A stretch of 64,000 nt of DNA from Ostreococcus lucimarinus (lineage: Eukaryota): NCBI GenBank assembly GCA_000092065.1, contig CP000583.1. One strand, written 5' to 3'. A program made the translations under genes and the position numbers. The notes below the pieces were generated by a model. That model ran no database searches. It had not been told where the DNA came from and was given only the letters and a program-made list of their open reading frames with translations. Shown here one piece after another: positions 3,996 to 60,491 of the stretch; positions within the stretch are counted from its first letter, which is position 1; each line of letters starts with the position of its first letter.

Positions 3996-6900
3996 TTAAT
4001 TTTGCGATTGCGTGCTCATGAACAGCGCTGGATCGATCGCTAAGGGAGCGTCTGATTGGCTGTGATCAGTGAACGTGCGAACAAGCTGGGAACCAGGACG
4101 CGGAGAGAGCGTAGACGCAGTCTCGGCGGGGTCGTTGCTCGGCAAGAGGGCGGCGCGAGGCGTGGCGCCGGATTTGCGAGTCGTGCGCTGCTTCATGGAG
4201 TCCGAAGCTCGCTCGGTGACAACGTTCACGCGCATATTCGGCGGTTTGGGCAAGCTCGTTGACTTTGACCCGCTCGTTCGCGGTGAGCGATGAGGTGAAA
4301 CGCGGTTTCTGTCGAAACTGTTGCGCGGAGAGACGTGAGGAGAGATGTTTGGCGACTCGGGATCGCTAACGGCGGCAAACGCCGATGCGGCCATTTGGAG
4401 TTCAGCGTGAGGTTTGTTGACGTCGACGTCTGAAATTCGCCGTTCCTCCTTCGCTTTGTGCTTCCAGTTCGTGATGGCGGTGTTCGTGTACGCTTGTGCC
4501 TTTCGCACCGCAGCGTCCATCTGAGACAACGTCAAGCCGTGAGCCATCCACGAAGACACGCCTGGAGGTCGGAGGTGCATGTTGATTCGATGGTCTCGCG
4601 CGACGAGCTCGAGGTGCTTCTTCGTCGTCGTCGCCGTCAATGCGTTCAGAACGTCCGCGTACGATGGGTGATCCAGTCGTTCTGAGGCACTCTTTGACTT
4701 GCGCGAGTCAAACGGGTTCAATCGATCCCACAGCAAGCCGAAACTGCTCATGCCTCCATCGTGCGGCGTGAGATCGCGGAAGCTAATGAAATCTTTGTCT
4801 TCTACGTCCACAACGATCACAGTCTCGACTCCCATCTCTTTTCGCATCACGTCTACGGGAACGCTGTTCAGGTAGCCCCCGTCAACGAGTAACTCACCAT
4901 TCTCGTCGCGAACCGGAGGCAAGAGCCCGAGAACCGTCATCGACGCTCGAATACACCGCCAAAGACGTCCAGAAGTGTGCACATTCAAACACTGTTTGTT
5001 TAAATTTGTGCTACAGCAGAAAAAGTTCAGCCACAGATCTTCGATGGAGGTATCAGCGCCCACGGAACTCTTGATGATGGTGTCCAAGCCCTTGCCGCTA
5101 AAGAGCGAAAGCAGCGGGAGTGTGAGATCGGTGAGCAAATGATGAGGAGAGTTCAGAACGTGCATGTTGTTGCGAAGCATTGGGAGTATGTGCGATGTTG
5201 ATAATGTCCTAGCATACATCCCTGCTGTGAGCGTGCCTTGACTGGTGCCACCGATACAATCGATTGGAATTCCATTCTCCTCGAGCGCACGTAACGCGCC
5301 CAAATGAGCCAAACCACCGCCGCCTCCGCCGGTCAAGATCACGCCAACGCTATGTCCGGACACATACCTCGCGAGGCGTGACATGTCATCCCTCGACGCT
5401 AGTCTCACGTGATGATGGCGTTTGATTGTAGTTCTGTTTTCCTGCCAAGTCTTTGTTTGCGACGGCGTGCTTCCAGGCTCGTGAATTAGTACCAGTTCTG
5501 GACGTGCGCTGTTTCGTGTGCGCCAAAGTAGTCGTTGCTCGTACAGAAGCGGCATCTTATTCTCATGATTGCCGTGTGCCACGACTAATACACAATCCGC
5601 TTGGCTCGCACAAACTTTACTCCAACTTGATGCACGCGGATCCGCTTGGAGGACGATGAAACGATGCACTTCCTCTTGTTCTGCCATCCATCCAGTGAGC
5701 TTTGAACGGTAAAACAGGTTGTCTAGGCGATGAGTCGTTTCGTCAGCGAAAATTTCATCGATAACTGAACTCGTTAGCAGCAGTGTGGATCCAAACATGG
5801 AAAGCGCACTTTGAAGAGCGCTTGCAAACTCGTTGATTTGTGTGCGTGGGCCCGCAGGTATGAGGCAGATCGTCACGAGCTCAGCGAGCGAACGGTCGCC
5901 AGTTCGAAGGTTATTCTGCAGTTTGCAAGCGACGAGTTCAAGAAGTCGACTCGATACCTCAGAGTGATGCGCGTTGATCAGTTTCAGCGCTCCGTGCGAC
6001 ATTCTGACGAGTTCTGTATCGCGTGAAGTGACTGCAGTTGAGGAATACTTCCCATGCGCGAGTAAAGGCGCTTCTCCGATGGTATCGCCTCGACCGCGTT
6101 CCCGAATTATTTCATCTCCACTACTCGTGTGACGTGGAAACCGTAAACGCACGCGTCCACTGATGATGACAAACATACTTGTGGCATCTTCATTGGTCAT
6201 AAAGACGTGATCTCCGCTTCTCAGCCACACTCGATTGAGACCGAAGCCGATGAAATTACGAATGAGAACGCCAAGAGACGAAGACGTTTGACGGAGCAAA
6301 GAGATGTATGCCTCAGTTTCAGCTGTACACAAATGCTCGAGAACTTCTCCTGTTATGACGAGCATTTCACAATCTTCATCCGCCTGTTGGGTTTCTCTGA
6401 AGAGTGAGCGTGTCATAAAGTGCGCCGAACCGATCAACTGTAACGCTCGCACCGGCTTCCCACGCAGCCCGTCGCCTTTCGGCCATGGAATGGCTTCCCG
6501 CGCAATCGATCCCTTCAGAAGGATGTAAAACGCATCCGTAGAATCTCCTTCGGCAAAAATAATCTCACCCTTTTTTATTTGTTTGCGTGCGCAATACTTC
6601 TCCACGGTCGGTAAGTGCTCCAAGAAATCTGAATTTGCGAGCGAGCATGCGTCGTCCGCCTCAGGTTGACCGCGAAGCGATTGCCGAGGCATGCCAAGAA
6701 AATCAATCAGCGAAAACTGCGCCACGCGCCACAATCGCGCGATCGCTTGTTGCAAATACAGCTGCAAAGTGTGCGGATGCTTTCGAACGAAGTCTAAGAA
6801 GATGCGCTGTGAGACTCGCACTACCTTTGCCCCGCCCTGCATGGTGATGCAACTCACGCTTCGTCTCGCGCTGTCGAGGATGTCTATATCTCCCACCGAC

Positions 6901-7348
6901 TCTCCCTCTTGTAAAATATTCGTCATCACAGGTGGCGCTCCATTCGTCGGTTGCAAATACACTCCCACCGATCCCTCGACGACGACGTATATCCCACTCG
7001 AACTATCGTCTCCTTGCCGAAAAAGCACTTCATTCGGCGCCAACACCTCCTCCTCCGACGCCTCAAACAGCTCTCTCGACAACTCCAACTCTAACACGCT
7101 AAAAAACTTCGTACTCGCGAAAAAATTAGGCGTGTTCTCATCGTTCACGTCTTCTCCACTCGCGCTCGCGAAAAACTGTCCCGACGTCCGCGACCCCTCC
7201 AGGTCGCCCTCGTCGCTCCAAAATTCATCCTCTCGACTCGTCGAGCTGCTCATCCCGCGCTGACTCTCGCGCGATCCGAACGACCCAACGCGCAGGACTT
7301 CCGCGCTGTCTCCACCGTCCACGCGCACGCCTCGTCGATTGCGTCCTC

Positions 7349-7385
<37 letters not shown>

Positions 7386-7484
7386 TTCCTCAGCCGCGTC
7401 ACCGCCGTCGTCGCGCGCGAACGCGACGTCCCACGCCTTTTTCACCGCGCACGCCGTCGCGACCGCGCTCGCGGCGTACCCCAT
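3996..7484 (-). CDS. NTE1: Neuropathy target esterase / PNPLA6-like lysophospholipase (cNMP-binding domains + patatin domain)
   Basis: Patatin motifs ILTGGGGGGLAHLGALRALEE and GTSQG, cNMP-binding domain signatures FAEGDSTDAFYILLKGS; probable start MGYAASAVATACAV at ~7484; the ORF-track N-terminal 210 aa (to 8120) are antisense of the PPIP5K gene and not coding. Confidence 0.85.
7345..7384 (-). repeat. (ACG)13 trinucleotide repeat encoding a poly-Thr tract in the NTE N-terminal region
   Basis: cgtcgtcgtcgtcgtcgtcgtcgtcgtcgtcgtcgtcgtc on plus strand; translates TTTTTTTTTTT in the minus-strand ORF. Confidence 0.85.
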
Positions 7485-7628
7485 CGCTCGCGCCGCGCGT
7501 CGTCCCCGCCCCGCGCCCGCGACGCCGCCATCCCGCGCCATGTCGTCGACGAATGCGGGGAATCGCGTCCTAACGACCGGGACGGCGGCCCGCCCGCCCG
7601 AAGCGTCATTCCCAGACGGACGCGCGCG
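7485..7628. promoter_or_regulatory. ~145-bp head-to-head intergenic spacer, putative bidirectional promoter (NTE / PPIP5K)
   Basis: Divergent start codons at ~7484 (minus) and 7629 (plus). Confidence 0.5.
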
Positions 7629-10600
7629 ATGTCCGAACACGCGGCGCCGACGCGCGACGCGCGGAAGCAAAGCTCGCGCTCGGGCGCGTCGAGCGCGTCC
7701 AAGCACCCGATCGTCACGCTGGGCGTGTGCGCGATGGATAAAAAGTCGCGCTCGAGCGCGATGCGAGAGATCCTGACGCGGATCGAATCGTTCGGGGAGT
7801 TTGAGATTGTGATATTCGGGGACGAGTGCGTGGTGAACGAACCGGTGGAAAATTGGCCCAAGGTGGACGCGCTGATCGCGTTCTACAGCAATGGGTTTCC
7901 GTTGCAAAAGGTGGAGCGGTACGTGGAGATGCACAAGCCCTTTGTGGTGAACGAGCCGAACGACCAGTGGACGCTGCTGGATCGGAGATTGGTGTATAAG
8001 CGGTTGCAGGAACACGATATTCCAGTGCCGAATCACGTGGTGGTGAATCGTAACGATTACATCAAGAAGGGGGCGCTCAGGAAGAAGCCGAAGGGGGATG
8101 AAGTGGCGTTGCCCGATCAACCGACGTTCGAGCCAAAGAATTTCTCACAGGACGAAGAGTACGTGGAAATCAACGGGAAAAGGATATATAAGCCCTTTGT
8201 GGAGAAGCCGGCGAACGCGGAGGATCATAACATTTTTATCTACTACCCACACAGCGTCGGTGGGGGGTACAAGCGCTTGTTTCGGAAGATTGGTAATCAA
8301 TCGAGTCAGTACTACCCTCCTCCTGAAACCACCGCGGCGGGCGAGTTGTCTTACGCCCCGGTTCGGGAGACGACATCTTTCATTTACGAAGATTTCATGT
8401 CAACGAACGGTACAGATGTAAAAGTGTATACTGTTGGTCCGAATTACGCCCACGCCGAAGCTAGAAAGAGTCCAGTCGTCGATGGAAGAGTGCAGAGAGA
8501 CGAGAGCGGCAAGGAGGTGCGTTACCCGGTATTGTTGACGCCAGAGGAGAAAGAAATCGCACGCCGTGTGTGTATAGCGTTTGGGCAGCGAGTTTGTGGA
8601 TTTGATTTACTTCGTGCGAAAGGTCGAAGCTACGTTTGTGACGTCAATGGATGGAGTTTTGTGAAAAACTCCAAAAAATACTATGACGACGCTTCGGTGT
8701 GCTTGCGAGCGATGATTTTGAAAGCCGTAGCGCCGAATCACTTTAGCACTCAGCCTGCTCAAAAAGCCGCGGCATCGGCTAGTGTTGAAGAGCCTGATAT
8801 CATTTTAGATGGTAATGATGCCGAATTGAAGGAAACCAGACTCGAGAAGGCGCCATCACCCAAGGAACCGCCTGAGGAGTTGCGCGCCGTACTCGGCGTC
8901 ATTCGGCACGGCGATCGCACGCCCAAGCAAAAGATGAAACTGAGAGTGAAAAATCGTGAACTTCTTGATCTCATGCTTCGATGCACGAACGGTCGAACTC
9001 GCAAGCAAGCTAAATTGAAGACGCCTCAGACATTGCAAGAACTCTTGAATATTTGCAGGGACATTTACAAAAGTTTGTCTAAGCAAACCTTGGCGCCGAA
9101 AGACGAGGAGGGACATGAAGAGGCGCAAGAAGAACTCGAAGCGTGGAAACAAGTAGTGTCGATTCTCGAAGAAGGAGGACACTTTAGTGGTATCAATCGT
9201 AAAGCGCAGCTCAAACCTCTTGAGTGGGAGACAATCGATGCTGGAACGCTAGACTCTCACACAGAAAAAGTCACCGAGGCTCTCCTCATCATCAAGTTCG
9301 GCGGTGTTTTGACTTATTTGGGTAAATATCAAGCCGAAACACTCGGTAAGGCATTTAGAGTACGAATGTATCCTCGTGGTAACTATTACGGCTCGGACGC
9401 TGATGGTTTACTGAGATTACATTCAACCTATCGCCACGATTTGAAGATTTACTCCTCCGATGAAGGTCGAGTGCAGATCACTGCTGCAGCTTTTGCGAAA
9501 GGTTTACTCGCCCTCGATACCCATCATGGACAGCTCACGCCGATTCTCGCTTCTCTCGTTACCAAAGATGCAAAGTTGTTGGATTTCGTGACTCATTACG
9601 TGGAAGAGGACATCTTACACTCAAAGCACAAGCTGTTCACGGCGATGACATACAAGCCAGATGCACAGCTGAATGACAAAAAGCCGACCGAAGAAGAAAT
9701 TGGGGGATTGTCGCAGACCTTGCGATTTGCTTCGCTGAATAAATTCAAGGTGGTGACACAAATGGTTATGGCTGCGCATCGCTTTCAAAGCGCTGGCGAA
9801 TCATCCCACCACGATACGACTCAAAAAGCTGTCACGCTTTCAACCAATCTCATGGGTGTACCGAAGCAGCCACTCAAGAAACTCGAAATGCTGTATGAAC
9901 TCACGAAATCAATTTCGGTGCAGCTTAGAACGATGCTTTCTAGCCACCAAGTGCGATATGATTCCGATTCCGGCACTAGAATCAACTGGGCCGACACGCA
10001 TTCCGCCGTCGCCCCACGTGGTTCACTTCCAAAAGGAGGTATTCAACAGCTTAAAACCATGATCGTTCCCGCTGGCGGTGAGTCCTTTTTGCTCATGTAT
10101 TCCAGATGGAAAAAGTTAGAGCAAGATCTTTACCATTCGCGTAAAGCTAGGTTTGACATCTCGAAAGTACCAGACGTCTACGACGCGGTAAAATACGATG
10201 CCATTCATAACGAACATTTGGCTTTAGAGGGACTCGAGGCGTTGTACGAAATCGCGAAAGAGCTAGCAGATTGCATTGTTCCGAATGAATACGGTACGAC
10301 GGCTTCGAGCAAGCTACGAATTGGGGGCACCGTTGCCAACAGCTTGATTGCAAAATTGCTAAGCGATTTGAACAACACTCGCGAGGAATCTTTCGCCGTC
10401 GAAAGCGGTGGAATGTCATCGAATGAAATGCGCCGTGTTTCTATCAGCGAAAAGATACCGGTTTTAAATGAAGAAGACGAGGCCGAAACGATCGACGAAG
10501 AGACTGAGCGAGAACGTGAGGAGCAGGAAGAAGAAGAGGAAGAGCTGAACACGACTCGATTGAATTTGCGATACGCCACGGCGCACGGTGTGCATAGCCC

Positions 10601-11363
10601 ATTCAGACACGTGCGCACGCGGCTTTATTTCACCTCTGAATCTCACTTGCATTCGCTCATCAATGTACTTCAGTACGCGCACCTGGACAAGCCTCGAGAA
10701 GATCGCGAGCGAGGTCGCTCTCCGTATCACACCGAACATAGCGAAAGCGACGTCGATGCAAAGGGTCCGACGAAACGCACTTCTACGAAGGGAAGCTCGC
10801 GCGCGAGCAGGGTACCGCCCGGTTTGCCGCTAGGGAGCCCGAAAAAGGAAGAGGATGCTACCAGCGCAAACTCAAGCGTGAGTGCTACGAATGAAACCGT
10901 CAGGCCTTCGCTCATCGACGATGCCTTGGGAGCGTTGTTTAAGCGCGAGAAGGAGCTCGATTATCTTACCCACATCGTGTTTAGAATGTTCGAACGTTTC
11001 CATGTTCCTCCGTCAGATCCTCGACGCTTTCGGATTGAAATTTTGTTCTCCAACGGCGTCAGTTTACACCCGTTTAAGACCAATGCCATCGAACTTTTCG
11101 ACAGCAGCGCTAGGAACGGTGTAGCAGATGAAGACGAGGAGATGATATCTGATGATTTGCTCAAAGAAATACAGATTCAAAACGATAAAATCATGCCTGG
11201 ACAGGATTATCTCACTCTTAGCACCATGGAAGAGTACTTGGTAAACTACAATCGACGCTGGAACAAGGGAGGGGATTCAGCCGATGGCACGCCCGGGAAA
11301 GGCGCGAGGAGCTCGAGTGTTGGCAGCGAGCGAATCAGGGCGGGAAAGAACCTCTTTACTTGA
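7629..11363 (+). CDS. VIP1: Inositol hexakisphosphate / diphosphoinositol-pentakisphosphate kinase (PPIP5K/VIP1): ATP-grasp kinase + histidine acid phosphatase domains
   Basis: N-terminal block IVTLGVCAMDKKSRSSAMREIL..NEPVENWPKVDALIAFYSNGFPL matches PPIP5K closely; RHGDRTPKQK histidine-phosphatase motif; ATG at 7629. Confidence 0.9.
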   Translation: MSEHAAPTRDARKQSSRSGASSASKHPIVTLGVCAMDKKSRSSAMREILTRIESFGEFEIVIFGDECVVNEPVENWPKVDALIAFYSNGFPLQKVERYVEMHKPFVVNEPNDQWTLLDRRLVYKRLQEHDIPVPNHVVVNRNDYIKKGALRKKPKGDEVALPDQPTFEPKNFSQDEEYVEINGKRIYKPFVEKPANAEDHNIFIYYPHSVGGGYKRLFRKIGNQSSQYYPPPETTAAGELSYAPVRETTSFIYEDFMSTNGTDVKVYTVGPNYAHAEARKSPVVDGRVQRDESGKEVRYPVLLTPEEKEIARRVCIAFGQRVCGFDLLRAKGRSYVCDVNGWSFVKNSKKYYDDASVCLRAMILKAVAPNHFSTQPAQKAAASASVEEPDIILDGNDAELKETRLEKAPSPKEPPEELRAVLGVIRHGDRTPKQKMKLRVKNRELLDLMLRCTNGRTRKQAKLKTPQTLQELLNICRDIYKSLSKQTLAPKDEEGHEEAQEELEAWKQVVSILEEGGHFSGINRKAQLKPLEWETIDAGTLDSHTEKVTEALLIIKFGGVLTYLGKYQAETLGKAFRVRMYPRGNYYGSDADGLLRLHSTYRHDLKIYSSDEGRVQITAAAFAKGLLALDTHHGQLTPILASLVTKDAKLLDFVTHYVEEDILHSKHKLFTAMTYKPDAQLNDKKPTEEEIGGLSQTLRFASLNKFKVVTQMVMAAHRFQSAGESSHHDTTQKAVTLSTNLMGVPKQPLKKLEMLYELTKSISVQLRTMLSSHQVRYDSDSGTRINWADTHSAVAPRGSLPKGGIQQLKTMIVPAGGESFLLMYSRWKKLEQDLYHSRKARFDISKVPDVYDAVKYDAIHNEHLALEGLEALYEIAKELADCIVPNEYGTTASSKLRIGGTVANSLIAKLLSDLNNTREESFAVESGGMSSNEMRRVSISEKIPVLNEEDEAETIDEETEREREEQEEEEEELNTTRLNLRYATAHGVHSPFRHVRTRLYFTSESHLHSLINVLQYAHLDKPREDRERGRSPYHTEHSESDVDAKGPTKRTSTKGSSRASRVPPGLPLGSPKKEEDATSANSSVSATNETVRPSLIDDALGALFKREKELDYLTHIVFRMFERFHVPPSDPRRFRIEILFSNGVSLHPFKTNAIELFDSSARNGVADEDEEMISDDLLKEIQIQNDKIMPGQDYLTLSTMEEYLVNYNRRWNKGGDSADGTPGKGARSSSVGSERIRAGKNLFT

Positions 11364-11509
11364 GCGTGCAGTAGCAACATAGCCAATATTGTTTAAAACG
11401 CTAAATAAATCAAATGTGGAGATAGGCAAAAGCAGGGGAAAGGCGATCAGCTTTAATTGGAACCTCGCTTCGCAGCGACGTTTCAAAACGAGTCGTCATA
11501 ATTTATAAT

Positions 11510-12997
11510 TTAATCACCGTTCTCCCACACGAGCATGGTGCGCTTGCCGACCATGACATCGACGAGTTGTCCAAGACGCGTGAACACGGACTCTTGCACG
11601 TAGGGGACACCATACTTCTCGCACACAGCCTTGACGCGCGGCTGCATGTTTTGGTACGCGCGCATGGACATGTCCGGGAACATGTGGTGCTCGATTTGGT
11701 AGTTCAACCAGCCGTGCATGAAATCGTTCGCATCGCCGCCAGTCTTGAAGTTCGCGGAGCCGATCACCGCGCGGAGGTAGAAATCATCCGAACGAGGCTT
11801 CGTTTCCGTCTCGAATCGGTAGATGTCGTCGCCGACGTGGTTGGTGGCGATGATGATGAACGAGTGAACGTTCGTCATAACGTCCGCGAGGACGGAAGTC
11901 ATGAACCAGGCGAGCGCAGCCTTCGGGCCGCCGATGGCGTAGCCAATCGCCGGCAGTGCGGCGAAAGACCAGAGCGCGTATGGAGCGAAGCACTTGATGG
12001 TTTCAGACACAGCAGCAAACTCGCCCTTGAACGCGCCTTGAGCGACCGTGAGAACGGTTGACGGAAGGCTGCCAGTCTTGAACGGGTTTGGCTTGGAGTT
12101 ACCAGCCTTGGCGGCTTCACGCTCCTTACGCGCGAGAAGTTCCTTCAACGTGTTCGGCGCGTAGTAAAACCACTTCCAGACGAGCGCGAGACCAGCGACT
12201 TGGAGATAACGCGACACCATCGGGGTGTTACCTTCGCGGAGCTCTTGCATGTTGCGCTCAACGAGATCCGGATCCGCATCTTCGCCGAGTTGATAATGGT
12301 GCAAGTGGTTGTGTTCTACGTCCCACGCCTCTGGGAGCATCCAATCCATCCAATCGGTGCATCGTCGCCACAAACCGCGCGCAAACTTTCTGCGGTGGAA
12401 TCGACCAGTGACTTCCCCGTTCGTGCTCTGCGCCGCGTTGTAACCACCGTGGCACGTGTGGTGACCGACCATAGTCCATCTCGCGCAAATCGCAGTCGAC
12501 ATCATGAACGCCGCGATCGGATTCATCCCGTTCAACCAAGCCGGCATGTTCAAACCCACCATCGGCATCGCCGTCAGCGCCGCCAACCCGCCAAAGTAGC
12601 ACAGGTTCGCCCACGTCAAAATCTTCTTCAAGTGCTTCACATCCTCCTCGAAGTGTTCCGGCGCCTTGAATTCCTTCTCTATCGCGCGCATTTCCGCCGC
12701 CCATCCCGCGAGATCGAGGTTCTCACGCCACTTCCCCGTCTCGTTGTACGTCATCGTCGTCATCGTCGCCAGAGAGTCAGAGCCGCTCGCCGCGCCGTCG
12801 ATCGCGATCGCCTTGTTCGCGCACGCATTCGCCCCGCGGTTCACGTCCCGCGTCGCGTTCGCGGAGATCGCACCAGCGCGCGCGATCGCGCGCGGCGTTT
12901 GCGCGACGCGTTGACGCGTCGTCGTCGCGCGCGCGCCGTTCGCGCGCGCCGCGGTCGGGCGCGCCGTCAACGTTCGCATCGCGAACGCGCTCATCGT
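11510..12997 (-). CDS. Membrane fatty-acid desaturase with front-end-type His boxes (HHTCH / HNHLHH / QIEHHMFP), no cytochrome b5 domain, Ala/Arg/Thr-rich presumed plastid transit peptide
   Basis: Three histidine boxes with QIEHH third box; N-terminus MSAFAMRTLTARPTAARANGARATTT transit-peptide-like; ORF-track start 13201 is GTG, first ATG ~12997. Confidence 0.7.
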   Translation of the reverse strand, partial: TMSAFAMRTLTARPTAARANGARATTTRQRVAQTPRAIARAGAISANATRDVNRGANACANKAIAIDGAASGSDSLATMTTMTYNETGKWRENLDLAGWAAEMRAIEKEFKAPEHFEEDVKHLKKILTWANLCYFGGLAALTAMPMVGLNMPAWLNGMNPIAAFMMSTAICARWTMVGHHTCHGGYNAAQSTNGEVTGRFHRRKFARGLWRRCTDWMDWMLPEAWDVEHNHLHHYQLGEDADPDLVERNMQELREGNTPMVSRYLQVAGLALVWKWFYYAPNTLKELLARKEREAAKAGNSKPNPFKTGSLPSTVLTVAQGAFKGEFAAVSETIKCFAPYALWSFAALPAIGYAIGGPKAALAWFMTSVLADVMTNVHSFIIIATNHVGDDIYRFETETKPRSDDFYLRAVIGSANFKTGGDANDFMHGWLNYQIEHHMFPDMSMRAYQNMQPRVKAVCEKYGVPYVQESVFTRLGQLVDVMVGKRTMLVWENGD

Positions 12998-13570
12998 CGT
13001 CTGTGCGGCGTTCGAGATCGAACGTGCGATCGCGGGCGTTGACGAAGGCGTCTTCGTCGTCGGCTTCGCGCGCGGGCGTCGGTCGGACGCGTCGCTGTGC
13101 CGCGCGAGCGTCGGCGGCGGGGCGCCAATCTTATCTCGGCGCGCGCGTGACGTCGTCGTCGTTCGATTTAATGGGTAGTCGGTGTGTTCGTATGCGTGCA
13201 CGCGGGCACTGTTTTTTTTCGGACATACGGGTCAGTCATTATCAGTTGTGTGCTGTTTATGTAAATACCCGGAATCGACGTCATTGGGTATAAGTCCGAA
13301 TGTCCGATTTTGCGGCTGAGGACGGAGTGATGGATGTAAATTTGAACCGATGGTGATGAAACTCCGCGAAATCACGCGTAATCAACGGTCGAAAATGGCT
13401 AGACGCCGCGCGCGCGGGCGCGCCGTGTCGGTCCGGCCGCAAAGATATGATTCAAAGTCTCGGTCGGTCGCGCGGCGGAGAGCGCGGGGAGGAAGTCTGG
13501 CTCGCGCGCGCGAAGGATCGCGCGCGAGAAAACTGTTTGCTTGTAAATAATCGTGGTGGTGATGATATTA

Positions 13571-14944
13571 TTATTCTTCAAACTCGGCGAAGAACGCGAT
13601 TGTGGATGTCAAGGCGTCGATGAAGGCGTCGACGTCGCTCGGGAGGTTGTAAAAGTAGAGGCTGGCGCGAGCGCTCCCGGGAACGTCGAGGTAACGGTGG
13701 AGGGGCTGAGTGCAGTGGTGACCGCTGCGACACGCGATTCCCGCTTGGTCTAGTAAGGTGCAAAGGTCGTTGGCGTGAATGCCGTCGACGTTGAAAGCGC
13801 AAAGCGAGGCTCGGCCGCGCGCGGGCGGAGGGCCGTATATCGTCACTCCAGGGACGGCGGAGAGCTTTTCGTACAGGTACGTCCCGATCTCGATCTCGTA
13901 GTCGTGGATTCTATCCATGCCTATTTTTGTGAGGTAGTCGCACGCCTCGCCCAAGGCAATGGCCTCAGCTATCGCGGGCGTCCCAGCCTCGAACCGTGAC
14001 GGAGGTTCGGCGTACGTGCTCTTTTCGAGGTACACGTCGGCGATCATCTCGCCGCCTCCCATCCACGGCGGCATGGTCTCTAAGACGTCCATACGACCCC
14101 ACAAAAATCCGATACCAGTCGGTCCGCACATTTTGTGCGAGCTACCCACGATCCAATCCGCACCGAGCGCTTGCACGTCCACCTTCATGTGCGGCAAGCT
14201 TTGGCACGCGTCGAGAAGCACCTTGGCGCCGACGCCTCGAGCGAGATCGATAATTTCCTTCACTGGTGCCACACCACCGGTGACATTACTCACGTGCGCC
14301 GTCGTGATGAGCCTCGTCTTTTCGTTCACCAAAGAGCGAAGCTGATCCATGTCCAGTTCCTGCGTATCCTTCGTCAATTCAACGAATTTCAACACGCACC
14401 CCGTCCGCTCAGCGAGCAGTTGCCACGGGACGATATTTGAGTGGTGCTCTAAAACGCTCAAAATTATCTCGTCACCGGCTTTGATGTGCTTGGTCCCCCA
14501 CGTGTTGGCCACCAGATTGATCGCCTCGCTCGCGTTTCTCGTGAAGACGATTTCCCTATCCGTCGTCGCGTTGACAAACGCCGCCACCTTTCTCCGCGAC
14601 AACTCGTACGCATCCGTGGCCTTGCTGCTCAGATAGTGCACCCCTCGATGGACATTGGAGTTATAATCCTTGTAGTAAAACATGTGCGCGTCGACGACTT
14701 GATTCGGCTTCTGGGACGTCGCCGCGTTGTCCAGATACACCAGCTGGGCGCCTGACTCTGTCTTTTGGTCGAGAATCGGAAAGTCTCCTCGTGTTTCCTC
14801 CCCCAGCGTCGACGTCGGCGCTTTCACCGCCGTCGCCGACGACGCAGCGCGTCGAACGCTCGCCGTCCGTTGCGTCGGCGAGACGCGGCGTCGCGGAGAC
14901 GACGTGGACGCGAACGCGGCGCGCGTGACGCCGGCCGCCGACAT
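13571..14944 (-). CDS. SUFS: Cysteine desulfurase SufS (plastid NFS2/CpNifS-type) with transit peptide
   Basis: [43 protein letters not shown] and C-terminal [11 protein letters not shown] motifs of group II SufS/CsdB. Confidence 0.9.
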
Positions 14945-15221: not shown

Positions 15222-18200
15222 TTATCGTGCGATGTCGGATTTTTCCATGTACTGGTACCCGGTGGGCAAGTCGCGATTGACCTTGTCCGCCTCGGGGGAC
15301 GTCAGGAGGGCGTCGCGAGGGAGCGCTCCGCCACGCAACGCACCGGTGTTTCGGGCTTGACCGCGCTGACCCGGTAGAAGATCGTCAAAGTTTTCTTCGG
15401 AATCGAACCCTGCGAGCGAAGAACCAGGGACACTACCAGGAAGCCTGTTGGCTTGTTGAAGATTGCTTCGAGTTTTCTTCGTCTTCGCCTTGGCGCTCGA
15501 CGGGAGTCCGCCAAAGGCGGCTCGCTTTTGTGTGTCTTTCGCGCGCATCGTCTCCCGGATCCGACGCATGGCTCCGTTCATTGGCGACACTCCGGTTGTA
15601 CCACCAGATAACGTGCGCTGCAAACCTCCAGATAGCTGTCTCTCTAACGGCGACTGATTGTACATTTCAACGAGCGCTGGAACAGGGTCTCCCACAAGGT
15701 TGACTGCGAGATCCTTTTCGCGTTCAGAACGCGAATGTTTCTCGCAAAAAGCAGTGAATCTTTTCTTGGAGTGGTCGACTGCGCGCATATGACACGCTGC
15801 TCGTCGGCAGCAGAGTGGATGAAAGACGGTTTGACAGTGCCCAAAGCAACAACGCATGAGCGTTCCATGCGAACGCGTACAGTATGTGCAAGACGCGTTG
15901 CGGCGCTCGCGAGGCACGTCCTCGATATTCACAGGTCTGATCACCGCTACGTGATTCATGATCCTATCGAACAAGTGCGCCTCGGGGACCCATTTCGCGC
16001 ACGCGACGTGACACCACTGGTTCCCGGTCAGCGTCTTCTTGAAGGCGCCCATTTTCACCGGGCAAAGCGTGCACTCCACTCCGCGGTAAAGAGCCAACTT
16101 GCCTTGTAACGTTATGCGCGACTTCTTTGAAGTCTTTGGAATTGCAGTGCCTGCTAACACGGCTGCATTGCACACAAAACACAACCACTTGGGATCCTTG
16201 ACATAAGCGTCACCCGTGATTCCGTAACAGTGCGGGTGCACGATAAGTTCACACTGCGAACACTTCATTGTTTCTTCCATCTTCTCCGCTTCTTCAGTCC
16301 CAGCACAGACACAGCAAGCTTTGTTATCGGACACGGCATGGAACGGATCCAGAAGAATCGATGACATCGGTGAACGAATCGGAGACGCTCCAAGAACAGG
16401 GGATCCGCTTCGAGGCGTGCCAGACAGGCTAAAAGACTTGAGGTGACTCGATGTGGTGGGGTCGAAGTTCGCGAGACCGAACATTTTTTTCACCCGACTT
16501 GGTGCCGCTTCTATTGCTTTCATCACCGCTTGGGTAGTCGGGGGCTTGTATGTTGGTATCAGGCTCTTCGGGTCGGGTGCCACTATTGCGGCTGAACCCA
16601 TCTCGCGTTTCGGTTTTGATTCGCGTCGCCCATCACCCACTGCTGCTTTGGCTCGCTCCAGTGCTGCCAGCTGGTCCGCTTCGCGCTTCTCTTTCTTCTG
16701 TTGACGTTTGACCTCTCTGATTCCCGACATGTACGTCGCGGCCTCATCGAGCTTTGCCTTGCGCTTTGCTTGTTCGTCGTTGTCCGACTCGATTCCGCTA
16801 GCTATTTTCTCTTGTGCCCTCTTGAGTTTCTGCCTGTTCGACTGTAGTTGCCAAAGAAGTTCATATTGAAGCGCAAGAATCTCTGCTTCTACTTCGTCTT
16901 TTGGAGCGCACGCCAAGAGCGTCGGGTTCGAACGCCAAGCGTCTTCAATTCGTTGCAACTCATCCTTTGCCGATGGACCGCCTTGTACACGGTTGGCGCG
17001 AGACGGCGCCCCAGGTAGTTGCAAATCTTTCGACTCGCCACTTTTCTTGAGACAATTCACGCTTCCTTCACTTGTACCGCATTTGCTCGACAACGTTTTC
17101 AATCTCACGCACACCGCGCATGGTTGAGATCCCCCCGAGCAACCTTGCTTGGGACCACTGGGAGTCTGTGAGGTAGACTCTTTGAGCCTGAACGCCTTGT
17201 CGAGCAAAATTTCCGTGTGAATGGCCATCGTCTCTTCTGTACAGCCTTGCTCAAAATGTTTCAGCTCTCCATCGATCCCAAATGCCGTTGTGCATTCGTA
17301 TCCGGTCTTTTCTCGCACATCCATATCCTTGTCACCGCCCAATTCTTCGTGCTCATCCCGAACGGGGTCGTTACCCACGACGGTCGTTCCCGCGCTGGAC
17401 GGTGAGTCGTCGATCCCTTGGCCGCCACTTAACGCTTGCTCGCTCGTAGTCGTCATATTTGTGAGGTTTGAAGGTACGTTAACGAGCCCGTAAGACGCTG
17501 CCATGTCTAGATTTTGCTCTGGGAAAATCATGTTTTTATCCAACTTTTTCTTCGCCTTGGTCGCCTCTTCTCGACGAGCATCTTGACGCGTATTCACGTG
17601 CGAAGCGCTCTCGTGACGAAGCCACATACGAAGGCACGACAACAGTTCGTCGGTGTCCGAGTTTTCACTCTTTATTTCGATCCCATTCTTGCTGCGTTTG
17701 CTATTGGTCTTGTTTTCGTACTTTCCAAGCCAGGCCTTCAACGCCGCGAGCGTTACTCTTGAAAATTTCGCAATCTCACGCATTTTTTCGCTCTCATCCC
17801 CCACTAAACTAACTAAAACTCTAATCGTCATCGCGACGTGTTCTGGTGGTAGATTCTGTACCAAATCGATCCCCTGTTCGTGTTCCTGCAACGGCGGTAT
17901 GACGAAGGGTTGCGTAGGTACGGCTGGAATAGTCCCGACAATGTGGTTCTTCTCCTCAAGTTTAATCGGCGAAGTCGGTGCCGATGTCGATGCGTGACTC
18001 TGATCTCCTTTTCTTCGGTACGTCAAACCGGGAATGGGAATTCCAATCTTGTCCTCTCCGACTTCATAATCCGGACCGACGCACGTAGTGTTCAGCGCGC
18101 TGTCAAACGTCCAAGGAGTGGCGGGCGCGATCCGAGCCAAGTCCGTCGCGTGAACCGGTCGAAAGAAATCTTCTGCATATCTCCACCAGGGCGCAACCTT

Positions 18201-29192: not shown

Positions 29193-31259
29193 ATGGCGCG
29201 CGTCGCGGCGTTCGCGATCGGCGTCGTCGCGGGCGCGAGCGCGTGCGTCGCGGGCGCCGCGCGCGCGGGATCGGCGCGCGGTGGCGGCGGCGACGGCGAC
29301 GCGCGCGCGGGCGGCGCGCGCGCGCGCGCGGCGGAGGCGAGCGCGCGGAGGCGCGCGGAGGACGAAGGCAAGACGCGCGCGGACGACGCGGACGACGGGG
29401 AGGACGGGGAGGACGGGGAGGACGAGACGCGGGTGGTGGTGTACGCCACGCGAACGGGGACGGCGAGGCGGTACGCGGCGACGATTCGACGACGGTTGAA
29501 CGATGAAGACGCGGCCGCGACGGGAGGAAAGCGAGGATACGCGCTCTTGGACGCGGCGAGCTTGGTGGATCCGGAAAAAGTGCTGGCGGGGGGGAAGAGG
29601 GTCGTCGCGATATTCGTGGTGAGCACGCACGACGGCGGCGAGGCGCCGGAATCGAGCGCGTGGTTCGCCCGTTGGGCGCGAGAGGCGGCGTACGATGAAC
29701 GCACGGGATGGATGTACTTGAAAAACGTGCGTTATGCGGTGTTCGGGTGCGGGAATAGGGAGTATGGGGATAACTTCAACCGAGCGGGGCGAGAGTTGGA
29801 CGCGCAGTTGGCGCGCATGGGGGGCGAACGCTTGGCGCGACGGTGCGACGGGGATGAAGCGAGCGGACGGATGGAGAAGCAGTTCGAGGAGTGGGGGGAA
29901 AAAGTTATCCGTCGGTTGTCAAATTCTACCGCATCGAGCGGGGACGATGCAGCGCACTCGCGCGTCGGTGTGGCGGAAGAACGGGACCAGTCTGAATACG
30001 CGAGCGAGGGCGAAGACGACGAGGGGGGGGCGAGCGCGGCAGGGAGCGAGGATGGTCAAGATATGGAGGACATCGCCGAAGGTGAGGGTGGAGAAAAGAA
30101 AGAAATGGTGACTGATGCTTTGCGTGGGGCGCTCACGAAGCAAGGTTACAAGATTCTTGGATCTCACTCGGGCGTGAAACTTTGTCGATGGACCAAGGCG
30201 ATGCTTCGCGGCAGAGGAGGTTGCTACAAACACACTTTCTACGGCATCGAAAGTCATCGATGCATGGAAACGACGCCGTCGCTTGCGTGTGCGAATAAGT
30301 GTACATTTTGTTGGCGGCATCACACGAATCCTGTCGGGAAAACGTGGCGTTGGCAGATGGACGATCCCTTGGAACTTGTCGAAGCCGCGGTTTCCGAGCA
30401 TTGCAAGATGGTGAAGCAAATGAAGGGGGTGCCAGGCGTTTTGCCCGAGAAGCTCGAAGAGGGTATGAATCCCAAACATTGTGCATTGTCTCTAGTCGGT
30501 GAACCAATCATGTACCCTGAGATTGGAAAGTTTGTAAGCGAGTTGCACTCGCGAAAAATCAGCACGTTTTTGGTGACGAATGCACAATTCCCTGAGGCAA
30601 TCACAAACTTGCCTCCAATAACGCAACTATACGTCTCTGTCGACGCCGCAACGCCAGAGACCTTGAAAGCAATCGATAGACCGCTATTTGCAGACTACTG
30701 GGATCGTTTCATTGGTTCTTTGACATCCTTAAAGGATAAACAACAGCGAACTGTCTACCGCTTGACACTCGTCTCGGGATGGAACATGGAAGAAGTTGCG
30801 GCGTACGCCAAGTTGATAGACCTCGGCCAACCCGATTTTATCGAGATCAAAGGCGTGACATACTGTGGAAGTAGTGATGCATCGTCACTCACGATGAAAA
30901 ACGTCCCTTATCACAAGGATGTGTGTGAATTTGGCGAGGCTATTGTCAATCTTCGTCGACGCGAAAACGGCGAGGAAGAATACGGCTTGGCGTGCGAGCA
31001 CGCGCATTCTTGCTGCATCTTGCTTGCTCGAACAGACAGGTACAAAATAGATGACGAGTGGTACACATGGATTGATTATGACAAATTTCAAACCCTCGTA
31101 GCGAGTGGAGAAAAGTTCAAAGCGCTCGACTATATCGAGCGGACGCCGAGCTGGGCGACGTATGGCGCGGAAGAAGCAGGATTTGACCCAGAGCAAACGC
31201 GCCATCGTAAAGTTCGTAATCACCCAGGGAAGTTAACGAGCGACGAACCGCCAGAATAG
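29193..31259 (+). CDS. TYW1: tRNA wybutosine-synthesizing protein 1 (TYW1): flavodoxin domain + radical-SAM domain
   Basis: Flavodoxin-like N-half ([19 protein letters not shown]), radical SAM core [27 protein letters not shown] and conserved C-terminal Wyosine_form domain. Confidence 0.9.
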
Positions 31260-31286
31260 ACTATAGACTAATGTGTTATTACACCT

Positions 31287-33131
31287 TTAACTCCCTGCGT
31301 GAGCCGCGGAGGCGACGTCGTTGCCGTACGCCGCGATGTTCTCTTCCAAAGTATCCAAGAGATGTCGCGAAGCCGCGGGCATGAACGCCTCGAGAACACA
31401 AAGTGAAGGCTTCACAACCAACTTGATAAAACCTAGCTGGTTGGATTGTGTGCTAGCCGGTCCCGCCAGACTTCTGTCCATGAAGGGTTCTACTCGCATC
31501 CCGAGTTTGCGTTGGCGATCTCCCTGCTTGTAGAACTCAGCCGTGACGGCTTGCGCCCAAGCCAACGCTAGCTCGTACGGGCGGGCGGGATTACTAATAT
31601 CTGCGCAATGTAGCGCGAATGCTAACGGTACCCAAATATTTTGCCACTGTTTAATCGGTTTGATACTATTCGTTTCCTCATCTTGTTCGTCCTCGATTTC
31701 CTTCAGCATTCGCTGCGTCAGCTCGCCATGGAACTCCATGTCGGTGTACATGATCATCTTTTGTAACCACTTCTTCAAGTCCGACTGCTCGGAATCTGTA
31801 AATTTCGCTAGCACCGCGTGCTTCTTGAGCAACGAAAAAGCTGTGAACAAGTGACCATTCTCGTTGACGCTCACATCGTTCCAACGCTCCGCCTCCGCGG
31901 ATTTACAGTTGACGAGAAATGTGTTGTTGACTCCAGGATGTCCCACATCGTGAGACATGGCGGCAACAAGCATTGCAAAAGTGTGTATAGGCTCAATCTG
32001 GGACTCTAAACTTGTCTCGATGAGATAAGCCGCGGCTTGAGTCACGTCGGTGGCGTGAACGCGATTGTGATAATCGTTGTCGCGATATTTCCTCTCAATG
32101 TCTGCAATAAAGTTTGAGACAGAATTGCGATCCAAAGGTAAAGCATGAAACAAATTGAAACGGTCAAACAAACCCATACTAAGCGTTTGAAGCGGACCTT
32201 TACGTCCGCGCTCGCACTCGCTGGCGAATTTGTAGATGTCGAACGACGTCCAACTCGTGTACATCGGATTCCTGCCTACATCGGCGAAAATTGTATTCAT
32301 GGACCCTCCCGGACTGTCCTCATCTCGCACGCCTTCACTGCTCGCCCGCGAAGGTAAAGAAGCGGCAGAATGATTTTGGCTCTGGATGTGATTTCTTGGT
32401 CCTCGCATCTCGATCGCCAACTGCGCCATGTTTTGCGCGAGCATGAGCGAGGAGTTGTCCGCCGTGAAAAACTGTTCGACGAAGCCTTTCGCGACTGGAT
32501 CGAGCAGATCCACCGCCGCCTGTTTGCTCGCCAAACTTCCATGAATCTGTAAAATCAACGCGTTCGCTAAACTCAGCGCGTTGGCGATCGCCTGTAACGT
32601 ATCTAATGGATCGCTATCTGAGCCGTGAGCGCGCTTGGAAGCTTCGAGGTCCACGAGACGGCGAACGGTGTGAAACATCGTGCGATACACCGAGTTCTCC
32701 GCAGCCGTCGACGTCCCCGGAACGAATTCACCGGTTTCCTCGTCCGCGATGATCTCATCGATCGCCGCATCCACCAACGCTTTCTTCGAGTTTGTCATCG
32801 TCGCGCCGGCGGCGGCTTGCCTGTACAGTTCGAGCGACCGTCTTCGAAGACTCTTTCGCCCCGGCGGTACCCGCGGGCTCGCGCTCGACGTCGCGAACTC
32901 CGTCAGCGTATCGCGAGACTCATAATCATCCAATTCGCTCGACTGCGACATCCGCTCGGTCCCCACCGCCCGAGTCGACCCGTTCTCGCTCAGCTCCCCG
33001 CTCCGCGCGCCCTTCGGCGACGTCGTCCCGTCCGCGCCGTCCCGAAGCGACCGTCTCCCCTCCGCGCTCGCGTTCTCCCTCCCCTCGTCCGAAGACGCTC
33101 GCGTCGACGTCTTCTTTCGAAAAAACCCCAT
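31287..33131 (-). CDS. 3',5'-cyclic nucleotide phosphodiesterase (class I catalytic domain)
   Basis: YHNRVHATDVTQAAAYL and HDVGHPGVNN metal-binding signatures of the PDEase_I domain. Confidence 0.8.
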   Translation of the reverse strand: MGFFRKKTSTRASSDEGRENASAEGRRSLRDGADGTTSPKGARSGELSENGSTRAVGTERMSQSSELDDYESRDTLTEFATSSASPRVPPGRKSLRRRSLELYRQAAAGATMTNSKKALVDAAIDEIIADEETGEFVPGTSTAAENSVYRTMFHTVRRLVDLEASKRAHGSDSDPLDTLQAIANALSLANALILQIHGSLASKQAAVDLLDPVAKGFVEQFFTADNSSLMLAQNMAQLAIEMRGPRNHIQSQNHSAASLPSRASSEGVRDEDSPGGSMNTIFADVGRNPMYTSWTSFDIYKFASECERGRKGPLQTLSMGLFDRFNLFHALPLDRNSVSNFIADIERKYRDNDYHNRVHATDVTQAAAYLIETSLESQIEPIHTFAMLVAAMSHDVGHPGVNNTFLVNCKSAEAERWNDVSVNENGHLFTAFSLLKKHAVLAKFTDSEQSDLKKWLQKMIMYTDMEFHGELTQRMLKEIEDEQDEETNSIKPIKQWQNIWVPLAFALHCADISNPARPYELALAWAQAVTAEFYKQGDRQRKLGMRVEPFMDRSLAGPASTQSNQLGFIKLVVKPSLCVLEAFMPAASRHLLDTLEENIAAYGNDVASAAHAGS

Positions 33132-40898: not shown

Positions 40899-43800
40899 TC
40901 ACAGCTTGAGCCTATCGCGAATGAGTTCAGCGATGGAGTCCTCTCCGGGACCGATATCCTTGAAGGCGTCGAGAACTTCAACGATGACGTCTTGGCGGCG
41001 CTTCCACTTCGGGCTTCCCTTGTTCACACCCGTGGTGCTGAAGGTGCGCAAGACATCCACAGCGGCGGATGGCGTGAGCCCAGTCAAGAGAGTCGCGGCG
41101 AGTTTCACATCAGGTTCGGGTTTGTCTTCCGGCTTCTCCACGCCCGGGCGCGCGCCGAACCCGAGGCTCGCACGGCGAACAATGCTCACTTGTTCTTCAA
41201 TCTCCAATCCAGCATAAATAACCTTCGCAGTCTTGACGTTGCGGTTTGCAACGACGCGGAGGATTTCGACCCCGTTGTACACAACGCTTCGCAGGTAGTA
41301 CGGAAGGACGAATTCAGCGACACCAACCATGCGACCGGGCTCGGACATGTTAACCAAACCGATGGCGGCTTCGGCGTCTCCAAGGTTCTCCACCATAATG
41401 TCAATCAACGTCGCAGCACGGGTCAAATCGAGACCCATGAGCGCTTCAGCGCCTCGGGTATCTTTTGCGCGCCACAAAGCAGCTAGGGCTGTCGCCGCAG
41501 CTTCCACGTTGGCTGCTCCTTGAAGGATCAACGTTGCGGCGATCGGATCTTCGTCTTCAGAGAGCTCGAGGACAACCTCTTCGATTTCCTCCTTGGATGC
41601 GCTCTTTTCAAGTCGCTTTTGCAAACGAGATGCACGCTCATCGGTGACTTCGTTGTCCGGCTTTGACGCGGCTTCAGCTTGTTCGGCCGCGCGCTCCGCG
41701 GCGGCTGCAGCGTCCGCCTTTGCCTTTGCCTCAGCGGCTACGGCTTCCGCCTTTGCCTTGGCCTGTGCATCCGCCTTGGTCTTGGCCTGTGCATCCGCCT
41801 TTGCCTTGGCCTCTGCATCCGCCTTTGCCTTGGCCTCTGCATCCGCCTTTGCCTTGGCCTCTGCATCCGCCTTTGCCTTGGCCTCTGCCTCTGCCTTGGC
41901 GTCCGCCTTGGCTTTGGCCTCTGCCTCTGCCTTGGCTTTGGCCTCTGCCTCTGCCTTGGCCTTGGCGTCCGCCTTGGCTTTGGCCTCGGCATCCGCCTTT
42001 GCCTTGGCTTCAGCATCCGCCTTTGCCTTAGCCGCCTTCGCCTCTTCTTCAGCCTTACGCTTCGCTAATTCGGCTTCCTTTCGCTTCGCTTCCTCAGCAG
42101 CCTTCTGAGCTTTCGCAGCCTCCTCCTGCGCCTTGGCTTCCGCCTTGCGACGTTCTTCCGCCTCCTTCTCAGCGCGACGCTTCGCCTCGGCAGCCTCCTT
42201 CTCAGCTTGCTTTCTCTTCTCTTCTTGTTCCTTCTCGAGACGCTTCTTCTCCTCCTCAGCTCGTTTGGCAGCCGCCTTAGCGTCCTCGTCAGCTTTTTTC
42301 TTGGCGCGCGCAGCTTCCTCCTCAGCTTGCTTGGCCTTTGCCGCAGCTTCCTTCTCAGCTTGTTCTTTGGCGCGGCGCTGCTCTTCAGCTTGACGCTTCA
42401 AGTCTTCTGCTTGCTTTTTGGAGTCCTTCTTCGCTGCTTCAGCCGCCTTGCGACGGCTTTCCTCTTCGTCGAGGGCCAATTGCTTGCGTCTTTCCGAAGC
42501 AGCCACGCGCTCGGCCTCCGCCGCTGCAGTTGCAATTCGTAACTCCTCCGCGCGTTCAGCAGCTGCGACGGCTTCAAGACGACGGGATTCTTCGAAGCTG
42601 ATCGTCGAAGATTCTTTGAACAAAACGCCCTCAGTTTCGGTCTGGTTGAAAAATCTACGAGTGTCCTCGTCTTGTCTAGCGGCCCACTCTGAATCTCTCC
42701 TGCTCAAAGTTTCTGCGTTCCATGCAAGACGTCGAGCATCAATTTCAGCGATGATGGCGGCGAGCTCGGCTTCGAGCTGCTTGATACGCATCTCAGCCAC
42801 CTTTCTACGGGCGTCTTCCTCTTCACGTAGAGCTCGCTCGGCACGAACAGCTGCGTCAGCTTCCGCGCAGACAGCAGCGTGACGTCCATCTTCATTGTGA
42901 GTTCTAGTCTGCTCCTCCGTCACGGTGCGTTCAATGGACATCTGGGACTGAGCACGGCGCGCCTTAAACTCTTCGTAGTTGGCCGCTGCAGTCTTTTCGA
43001 GAGCTTGCAATTCGGGAATGAGGATTTGAAGTTGCGACTCCATCTGCGTAATAGTAGCGTTGAGATTCTGCATCATGTTGTCGATAGCAATAGGCGAAGC
43101 AGCGGCAAGTCGCCGCGCATCTTCCTTACGTTGTCTCTCCTCCATCATCTTCCTGAACTCGGCGCGACGAGCTTCCTCGGCGTTGAACAAAGCCTTGATC
43201 TTCGCCGCAAAGTCGTCAATCTCTTTCTGCTTGCGCTCGCACTGCGCGTCAAAATCAGCTCTTCGTTGTTTCTCAGCGGCCTCCTTTTGCGCGATGGCGT
43301 CGGCAGCTTGCTTACGGCGCATCTCCTCTTGAGTCTGTAAGAACTCCTCCTTGGCTTCAAGTTCCGCTCGGAACTTGTCGAGAATGTCCGGCAGTTCATC
43401 ACGGAATCGGTCGCGTCTAGCGTCCTCTTTCGCGATAATATCGTCGTCGATGGCCTTTTGATCGGCAATCTTCTTGTCCATCGCCTTGCGTCGGGCTTCT
43501 TCTTCGGCACGGCGCATGGCTTCGTCGCGCACAAGCTTCTTGAGCTCTTCACGCATTTGCAGCAGCTTGGCGTCTTCTCTCAGGCGCTCGGCCGCATCTT
43601 CCGCGCGAAGACGTTCATCTTCGGCTATAGCTTCTTCACGAGACTTTCTGAACTCCGTGACTCTTTGCGCTTCAGCCTCAAGTGCAGCCTTGGCGGCGGC
43701 ATCAGCTTCGCGTCGACGACGTTCCAAGTCGCGAATGAAATCGTCAATTTCTTGACGCTTTCTGGACACCTCATTCGCATGATCTTCACGTCTGCGTTCT

Positions 43801-48035: not shown

Positions 48036-48309
48036 TCGCGCTCGCGCTCGCGACGACTCGCGCGTCCGCGCCACGCACGTCCGCGCGCGCGGCGTTCTCA
48101 CGCGCGCGAAGAGCGAGCGAATTTAAGGGATCGTCGACGAAGATACGACGTCGCGGCGGTTCGCGCGCGTCCGTCGATCGATCGCGCGCGTCGGTCGATC
48201 GATCGCGCGAGGCTCGCGCGATCGATCGACGTCGCGCGCGCGCGACCGACCGAGGGATCGGCGGTCGGTCGACCGCGCGCGCGCGGCGCGAGAGCGCGGC
48301 GCGCGGGTT

Positions 48310-60432: not shown

Positions 60433-60491
60433 ATTTCGCGCATAAGGACACATTTAATGAGCAAACTTGATCTTATCATTACACTTCTCGT

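Follow-up and report, generated by a model that had tools for sequence, protein, structure and literature searches.

Here we describe a fatty-acid desaturase gene in a 64,000-nucleotide stretch of Ostreococcus lucimarinus DNA (GenBank assembly GCA_000092065.1, contig CP000583.1; the whole stretch is called the window below). The gene, at 11510..12994 on the minus strand, is very probably (a probability of roughly 0.93) the orthologue of a plastidial acyl-lipid desaturase of non-canonical type with omega-3 (methyl-end) specificity, delta15 on C18, known as Otp-omega3-Des or OtN3 in O. tauri and as EhDES15 or EhN3 in E. huxleyi. Since the protein is 82% identical to its O. tauri counterpart, lies in the same gene order and repeats verbatim the boxes HHTCH, HNHLHH and YQIEHH together with the motif MTYNET, it was assigned to this characterised enzyme. 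The orthology, the domain content and the motifs are established here; plastid location, omega-3 regiospecificity and the range of lipid head groups have been shown in orthologues and would carry over to the O. lucimarinus enzyme.

Gene structure and domain content

The open frame on the minus strand spans 11510..13201 and has its first in-frame ATG at 12994, from which the protein begins MSAFAMRTLTAR... On the 5' side of this ATG, at 12995-13201 (minus strand), there are 69 further open codons without an ATG, the start of the listed open reading frame (ORF) being GTG, and mechanical ORF lists therefore give 563 residues. This additional stretch is left out of a 494-residue gene call in public metagenome assemblies, which is 100% identical to the desaturase and was found on at least 24 contigs. 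From its first ATG the coding sequence was placed at 11510..12994, and the identical call matches it. A sequence-only reading of the same DNA had given the span as 11510-12997; the gene and its start were borne out, and its end falls one Thr codon (3 nt) 5' of the ATG. The features of the gene are listed below (aa, amino acid residues).

11510..12994, minus strand: probable plastidial omega-3 fatty-acid desaturase orthologue, complete intronless coding sequence, 494 aa and stop (ORF, first ATG)
12755..12994, minus strand: presequence, aa 1-80, directly followed by MTYNET; putative chloroplast transit peptide (composition, model confidence, low conservation)
11513..12754, minus strand: mature desaturase, aa 81-494, with hydrophobic stretches at about aa 125-154 and 332-384
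11594..12505, minus strand: Pfam PF00487 FA_desaturase domain, about aa 164-467 (Pfam, E 2.5e-20)
12449..12463, minus strand: histidine box 1, HHTCH, aa 178-182 (H178, H179 and H182 invariant in 61 relatives)
12296..12313, minus strand: histidine box 2, HNHLHH, aa 228-233 (H228, H232 and H233 at least 90% conserved in 61 relatives)
11837..11866, minus strand: H377 and H386, the former in the fourth hydrophobic helix, the latter in TNH (invariant in the 61-sequence alignment)
11684..11698, minus strand: histidine box 3 with Gln, QIEHH (followed by MFP), aa 433-437 (Q433, H436 and H437 invariant in 61 relatives)

In the Pfam scan PF00487 scored 73.7 bits, the cut-off being 29.7; the domain coordinates were shifted by one residue, the query having begun one codon 5' of the ATG. 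Even at E<=1 nothing besides PF00487 was returned, neither a cytochrome b5 domain nor the Lipid_DES domain of the sphingolipid delta4 enzymes (DEGS/DES1). A scan against NCBIfam gave no family match, and a PDB sequence search gave nothing meaningful (top E 2.1, an LDH). A database search recovered 1103 homologues at E<=0.001, and in the best 120 of these PF00487 was the sole Pfam domain, with cytochrome b5 in none. Judged from these matches and from boxes that are invariant or nearly so in 61 relatives, the assignment to the desaturases is far beyond chance.

The sequence-only reading had pointed to the boxes HHTCH, HNHLHH and QIEHHMFP, all of which are present in the 494-residue ORF, and to the lack of cytochrome b5 at either end, which was confirmed. 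The heme-binding motif HPGG occurs nowhere in the 64-kb window, whichever of the six frames is read. An upstream b5 exon, named in that reading as a finding that would speak against it, was sought and not found: the spacer of 573 bp that separates the ATG from the nearest upstream gene, coding for a SufS-like protein, carries stops in all frames and no ORF fit for a b5 domain. The six-frame scan and the translated spacer were thus both negative for a hidden cytochrome b5 exon, and the absence of cytochrome b5 is a solid observation.

Orthology with the O. tauri enzyme

The closest named homologue is the O. tauri protein OUS43900.1/XP_003078215.2, which is Otp-omega3-Des (Degraeve-Guilbault et al. 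2021, Suppl. Figs 7-8, PMC8018280; also named in the Fig. 1 legend of PMC11269151). In a direct comparison the identity was 82% over 487 residues and 88% over the mature 414. Comparison with the characterised Ostreococcus desaturases had been proposed as a check in the sequence-only reading, and here it led to Otp-omega3-Des; the boxes reported for that enzyme are HHTCH, HNHLHH and YQIEHH (PMC8018280). The 957-kb metagenomic contig containing the window was compared with O. tauri scaffold KZ155826.1 (GCA_002158475.1), and the order PHD-finger, Aminotran_5, FA_desaturase, PPIP5K, cNMP (cyclic nucleotide)-binding patatin-NTE is the same in both genomes; the desaturase is therefore the positional (syntenic) orthologue. 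The gene is intronless in both species, and in O. lucimarinus its ORF is intact and single-copy. Thus the two genes share their boxes, the MTYNET start, the layout of a transit peptide followed by a b5-less desaturase, and their flanking genes. They differ in that Otp-omega3-Des belongs to another Ostreococcus lineage and has a slightly longer presequence. The supplement of PMC8018280 already contains an alignment with the orthologues of O. lucimarinus, Bathycoccus and two Micromonas species.

Presequence and predicted structure

The first 80 residues are 61% Ala, Ser, Thr or Arg (23 Ala, 11 Thr, 10 Arg), with 11 basic residues and three acidic. This segment is 50% identical to its O. tauri counterpart, versus 88% for the mature part. 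In the AlphaFold2 model residues 1-71 are predicted to be disordered, with a predicted local distance difference test score (pLDDT) below 50, and the remainder is mostly above 90; the mean over the whole model is 85.3. An Ala/Arg/Thr-rich, disordered and poorly conserved N-terminus of this kind agrees with the transit-peptide-like presequence that had been read from the sequence. In O. tauri a transit peptide was likewise predicted 5' of a conserved Met-initial sequence, and the construct made without it starts MTYNET (PMC8018280). Since MTYNET stands at residue 81 of the O. lucimarinus protein, cleavage is inferred to occur just before it. It was shown that a yellow fluorescent protein (YFP) fusion of Otp-omega3-Des marked only the chloroplasts in Nicotiana benthamiana (PMC8018280), and the plastid location proposed in the sequence-only reading is thereby supported by analogy with the orthologue.

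In the model the protein folds like a membrane di-iron desaturase. The top structural match of the model is the desaturase-domain subunit of the Chlamydomonas Orf2971-FtsHi import motor (8xks_K/8xqw_M), with just 13% identity.

Histidine boxes and candidate iron ligands

The conservation of the boxes was counted in the alignment of 61 relatives that also served as input for AlphaFold2. Box 1 stands in the context GHHTCHGGY and box 2 in VEHNHLHH; H228, H232 and H233 of the latter are invariant in a set of 16 sequences. The QIEHH of box 3 sits within the family signature LNYQIEHH. Outside the boxes, H377 and H386 are probable extra iron ligands. H377 is the counterpart of His361 of EhN3, which lies in the fourth transmembrane helix (TM4) and was modelled as an iron ligand (PMC11269151). 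The conserved His and Gln residues of the Ostreococcus desaturase may act as iron ligands.

Relation to characterised desaturases

The activity of the O. tauri enzyme has been documented. In Synechocystis at 32 C, Otp-omega3-Des made 18:3n3 from 18:2n6 and 18:4n3 from 18:3n6, as DesB does ("in a similar way"), and the products were found in galactolipids, sulfoquinovosyldiacylglycerol (SQDG) and phosphatidylglycerol (PG) (PMC8018280). When it was overexpressed in O. tauri, all omega-6 polyunsaturated fatty acids fell, and its transcript was found to climb on chilling (PMC8018280).

Like the Ostreococcus enzymes, EhDES15/EhN3 (Kotajima et al. 2014; Sun et al. 2024) has a QIEHH box, a transit peptide, no cytochrome b5, four transmembrane helices and the TM4 histidine. 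It is more distant in sequence and, as its haptophyte host has a secondary plastid, it may have a targeting sequence of another kind. In Synechococcus EhN3 showed omega-3 activity on C18 and C20 omega-6 substrates and in galactolipids, and it was inactive in yeast (Sun et al. 2024, PMC11269151); C20 substrates are thus a feature shown for EhN3. The third relative, TcN3 (AOG21010) of Thraustochytrium sp. 26185 (Meesapyodsuk & Qiu 2016), clusters with the Mamiellophyceae enzymes, has the same box motifs and reportedly takes C20 fatty acids (PMC8018280). Its host has no plastid, so the electron donor and the lipid substrates of TcN3 must be different ones.

The canonical omega-3 desaturases (FAD3/7/8 of plants, CrFAD7 of Chlamydomonas and DesB of cyanobacteria) carry out the same reaction, and FAD7/8 and DesB also share its substrates, the glycerolipids of plastids or thylakoids. 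They form a separate sequence lineage, however, with boxes HXXXH, HXXHH and HXXHH, in which the third box has His where the Ostreococcus desaturase has Gln. The Mamiellophyceae enzymes were accordingly described as "unrelated to green omega-3-Des" and as diverging from the canonical hallmark boxes (PMC8018280).

The front-end desaturases share the Gln that replaces the initial His of box 3, as is seen in Ot05 and Ot10, the Ostreococcus plastidial delta6 enzymes, in the acyl-CoA delta6 desaturase Ot13 and in the Chlamydomonas delta4 enzyme CrD4FAD; Ot05, Ot10 and CrD4FAD also share plastid targeting with the omega-3 desaturase. All four differ from it in having an N-terminal cytochrome b5 domain with an HPGG needed for activity (mutation of HPGG abolishes the activity of Ot05 and Ot10) and in acting on a carboxyl-side bond. 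Their first two boxes are of another kind, xHDYxHGRx and WWSxKHNxHH (with QLEHHFLP as third box in Ot05 and Ot10) or QHEGGHSSL and WNQMHNKHH, and are not matched by the O. lucimarinus protein. A diatom-type "plastid delta6FAD" for 16:3 was also considered and dropped; Phatr_50443 is a cytochrome b5 fusion homologous to the delta6 desaturases of the endoplasmic reticulum.

Alternative interpretations

The sequence-only reading had seen in this gene a front-end-type desaturase, b5-less, ferredoxin-dependent and plastidial, and had tied it to 16:4 and 18:5; with a delta3, delta4 or delta6 specificity such an enzyme would fit the plastid presequence, the Gln of the third box and the fact that the literature assigns no enzyme to the delta3 step giving 18:5. 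The Gln, taken there as diagnostic of the front-end class, does not discriminate: it is common to the omega-3 family, and the authors of the EhN3 study themselves remarked that this family has Gln "like front-end desaturases" (PMC11269151), while the desaturase classification paper PMC5037126 makes no mention of a Gln box. As the Gln-box is a documented trait of the omega-3 family, there is no sign here of a new front-end desaturase. Moreover, the syntenic orthologue, 82-88% identical, is a methyl-end omega-3 desaturase whose sole products in Synechocystis were the omega-3 acids 18:3n3 and 18:4n3, with no front-end product reported; EhN3 showed omega-3 activity only, on four substrates; Ot05 and Ot10 have other first and second boxes and are strictly dependent on the cytochrome b5 fused to them; and diatoms carry the family yet are not among the 18:5-containing groups listed in PMC8018280. 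A front-end specificity is therefore very improbable, and it is already largely refuted by the assays published for the orthologues.

A role for an omega-3 desaturase that reaches beyond plastidial C18 chains, whether through a dual location or through action on C16, C20/C22 or extraplastidic lipids (the betaine lipid DGTA, precursors of triacylglycerol (TAG)), as the single omega-3 enzyme of the cell, may be entertained as a minority possibility. Otp-omega3-Des is of the type that provides the sole omega-3 desaturase candidate in Mamiellophyceae (PMC8018280), in O. tauri overexpressors DGTA held less 20:4n6 and TAG was altered, and C20 chains are taken by EhN3 and, reportedly, by the thraustochytrid homologue. 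Set against this, the YFP fusion was seen in chloroplasts only, the C16 changes were of poor significance, and the extraplastidic effects could stem from the export of n-3 chains made in the plastid. The chance that the gene is instead an inactive or decaying paralogue, or a desaturase fold recruited for a non-catalytic role, is close to nil. The subunit of a plastid protein-import motor that gave the best structural match speaks for such recruitment, but it is only 13% identical; all catalytic His and Gln residues are invariant, the intact single-copy ORF is syntenic with the active O. tauri gene, and the identical protein occurs in many environmental assemblies.

Several points do weigh against the assignment as a plastidial omega-3 desaturase, or at least against parts of it. 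The function would be transferred from an orthologue that is 82% identical. The activity of Otp-omega3-Des in N. benthamiana was subtle, and in the native host its overexpression shifted mostly minor fatty acids (PMC8018280). Ferredoxin is a putative donor for any member of the family. Thraustochytrids, Goniomonas and many bacteria have homologues although they lack plastids, so that dependence on ferredoxin is no property of the family as such. Finally, extraplastidic lipids were altered too in the Otp-omega3-Des overexpressor (PMC8018280), so that strict confinement of its role to the plastid is not proven.

Bacterial homologues

Full-length prokaryotic homologues were found with 35-47% identity across the whole mature domain. 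They are about 375-380 residues long, have the HxxLHH and QIEHH boxes, and lack both cytochrome b5 and a presequence. Their hosts are Myxococcota, Methylococcales, Campylobacterota (Sulfurovum, Sulfurimonas), Planctomycetes, a few Gammaproteobacteria and others, with weaker partial matches to the desaturase in Actinomycetota; delta-proteobacterial sequences had already been included in the tree of PMC8018280. Two examples are given here.

Cystobacter fuscus, locus L017, 2965-4110: bacterial homologue
Methylomonas defluvii, locus L030, 2905-4029: bacterial homologue

True cyanobacteria were not seen in the best 80 prokaryotic loci, which held one Sericytochromatia metagenome-assembled genome; the scan used the family-specific peptide patterns DWMxPEAW and LNYQIEHH, so that DesD may be unsampled and a distant relationship to it stays possible. 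By analogy with DesA3/Rv3230c, a redox partner was looked for beside the bacterial genes, and no ferredoxin or reductase was found at the Cystobacter and Methylomonas loci. The neighbours there code for an AAA ATPase, a DUF1275 protein, a SulP-carbonic anhydrase, a type I restriction subunit, a DUF805 protein and DnaJ.

This distribution hints that the algal enzyme did not come from cyanobacteria and was possibly acquired by horizontal transfer. The larger proposal, that algae acquired a Gln-box, b5-less lineage from bacteria and that the Ostreococcus enzyme serves as the sole omega-3 desaturase of the cell beyond plastid C18 chains (on C16 and C20/22 chains or on extraplastidic lipids), is rather doubtful. 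If true, it would provide a natural case of methyl-end regiochemistry with a front-end-type Gln box, and such a case would be useful for finding the determinants of regioselectivity.

Proposed mode of action

If the O. lucimarinus protein behaves as its orthologues do, the nuclear-encoded precursor would enter the chloroplast by means of its transit peptide of about 80 residues. The mature enzyme would be a four-helix integral-membrane di-iron protein, its two irons held by the His/Gln boxes and the two further conserved histidines. Since there is no fused cytochrome b5, electrons would be delivered by a separate soluble donor, most likely ferredoxin. A ferredoxin-type donor, which had been proposed in the sequence-only reading, is plausible by analogy: besides the missing b5 domain, members of the family were active in two cyanobacterial hosts and EhN3 was inactive in yeast.

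Omega-6 acyl chains on monogalactosyldiacylglycerol, digalactosyldiacylglycerol, SQDG and PG would then lose two hydrogens at their omega-3 position, so that 18:2n6 becomes 18:3n3, 18:3n6 becomes 18:4n3 and, probably, 16-carbon n-6 chains become n-3. In this way the enzyme may set the omega-3/omega-6 ratio; in O. tauri both this ratio and the transcript of the gene go up on chilling. Its link to the n-3 pools (16:4, 18:4 and 18:5) would be indirect and limited to adding the omega-3 bond, the delta4 and delta3 steps being carried out by other enzymes. Thus, of the relevance to 16:4 and 18:5 suggested from the sequence, the supply of the n-3 bond stands and a delta4 or delta3 step does not.

Gene neighbourhood

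The genes flanking the desaturase in the window are the following.

about 3996-7541, minus strand: cNMP-binding patatin/NTE-type lipase
7629-11363, plus strand: PPIP5K/VIP1 inositol-pyrophosphate kinase
13571-14944, minus strand: SufS-like cysteine desulfurase (Aminotran_5) with a transit-peptide-like N-terminus of its own, next gene upstream
15222-18140, minus strand: PHD-finger protein

The GC content is 0.49-0.52 in the 2-kb bins 8001-12000, 16001-18000, 30001-32000 and 60001-62000 and 0.60-0.69 elsewhere in the window; the lowest-GC bin covers the PPIP5K gene adjoining the desaturase. Farther along, at 40899-48101 on the minus strand, a 2400-residue ORF lies amid strongly negative AT skew (-0.32 to -0.33).

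Significance

The identity and role of this gene are already known from the O. tauri orthologue, and the Gln-box omega-3 lineage of marine algae has been in the literature since 2014-2024. For annotation, the case teaches that a Gln-containing third histidine box alone does not mark a front-end desaturase. As was described for the O. tauri orthologue, the gene would respond to temperature and determine how omega-3 and omega-6 chains are balanced in a dominant marine picoalga.
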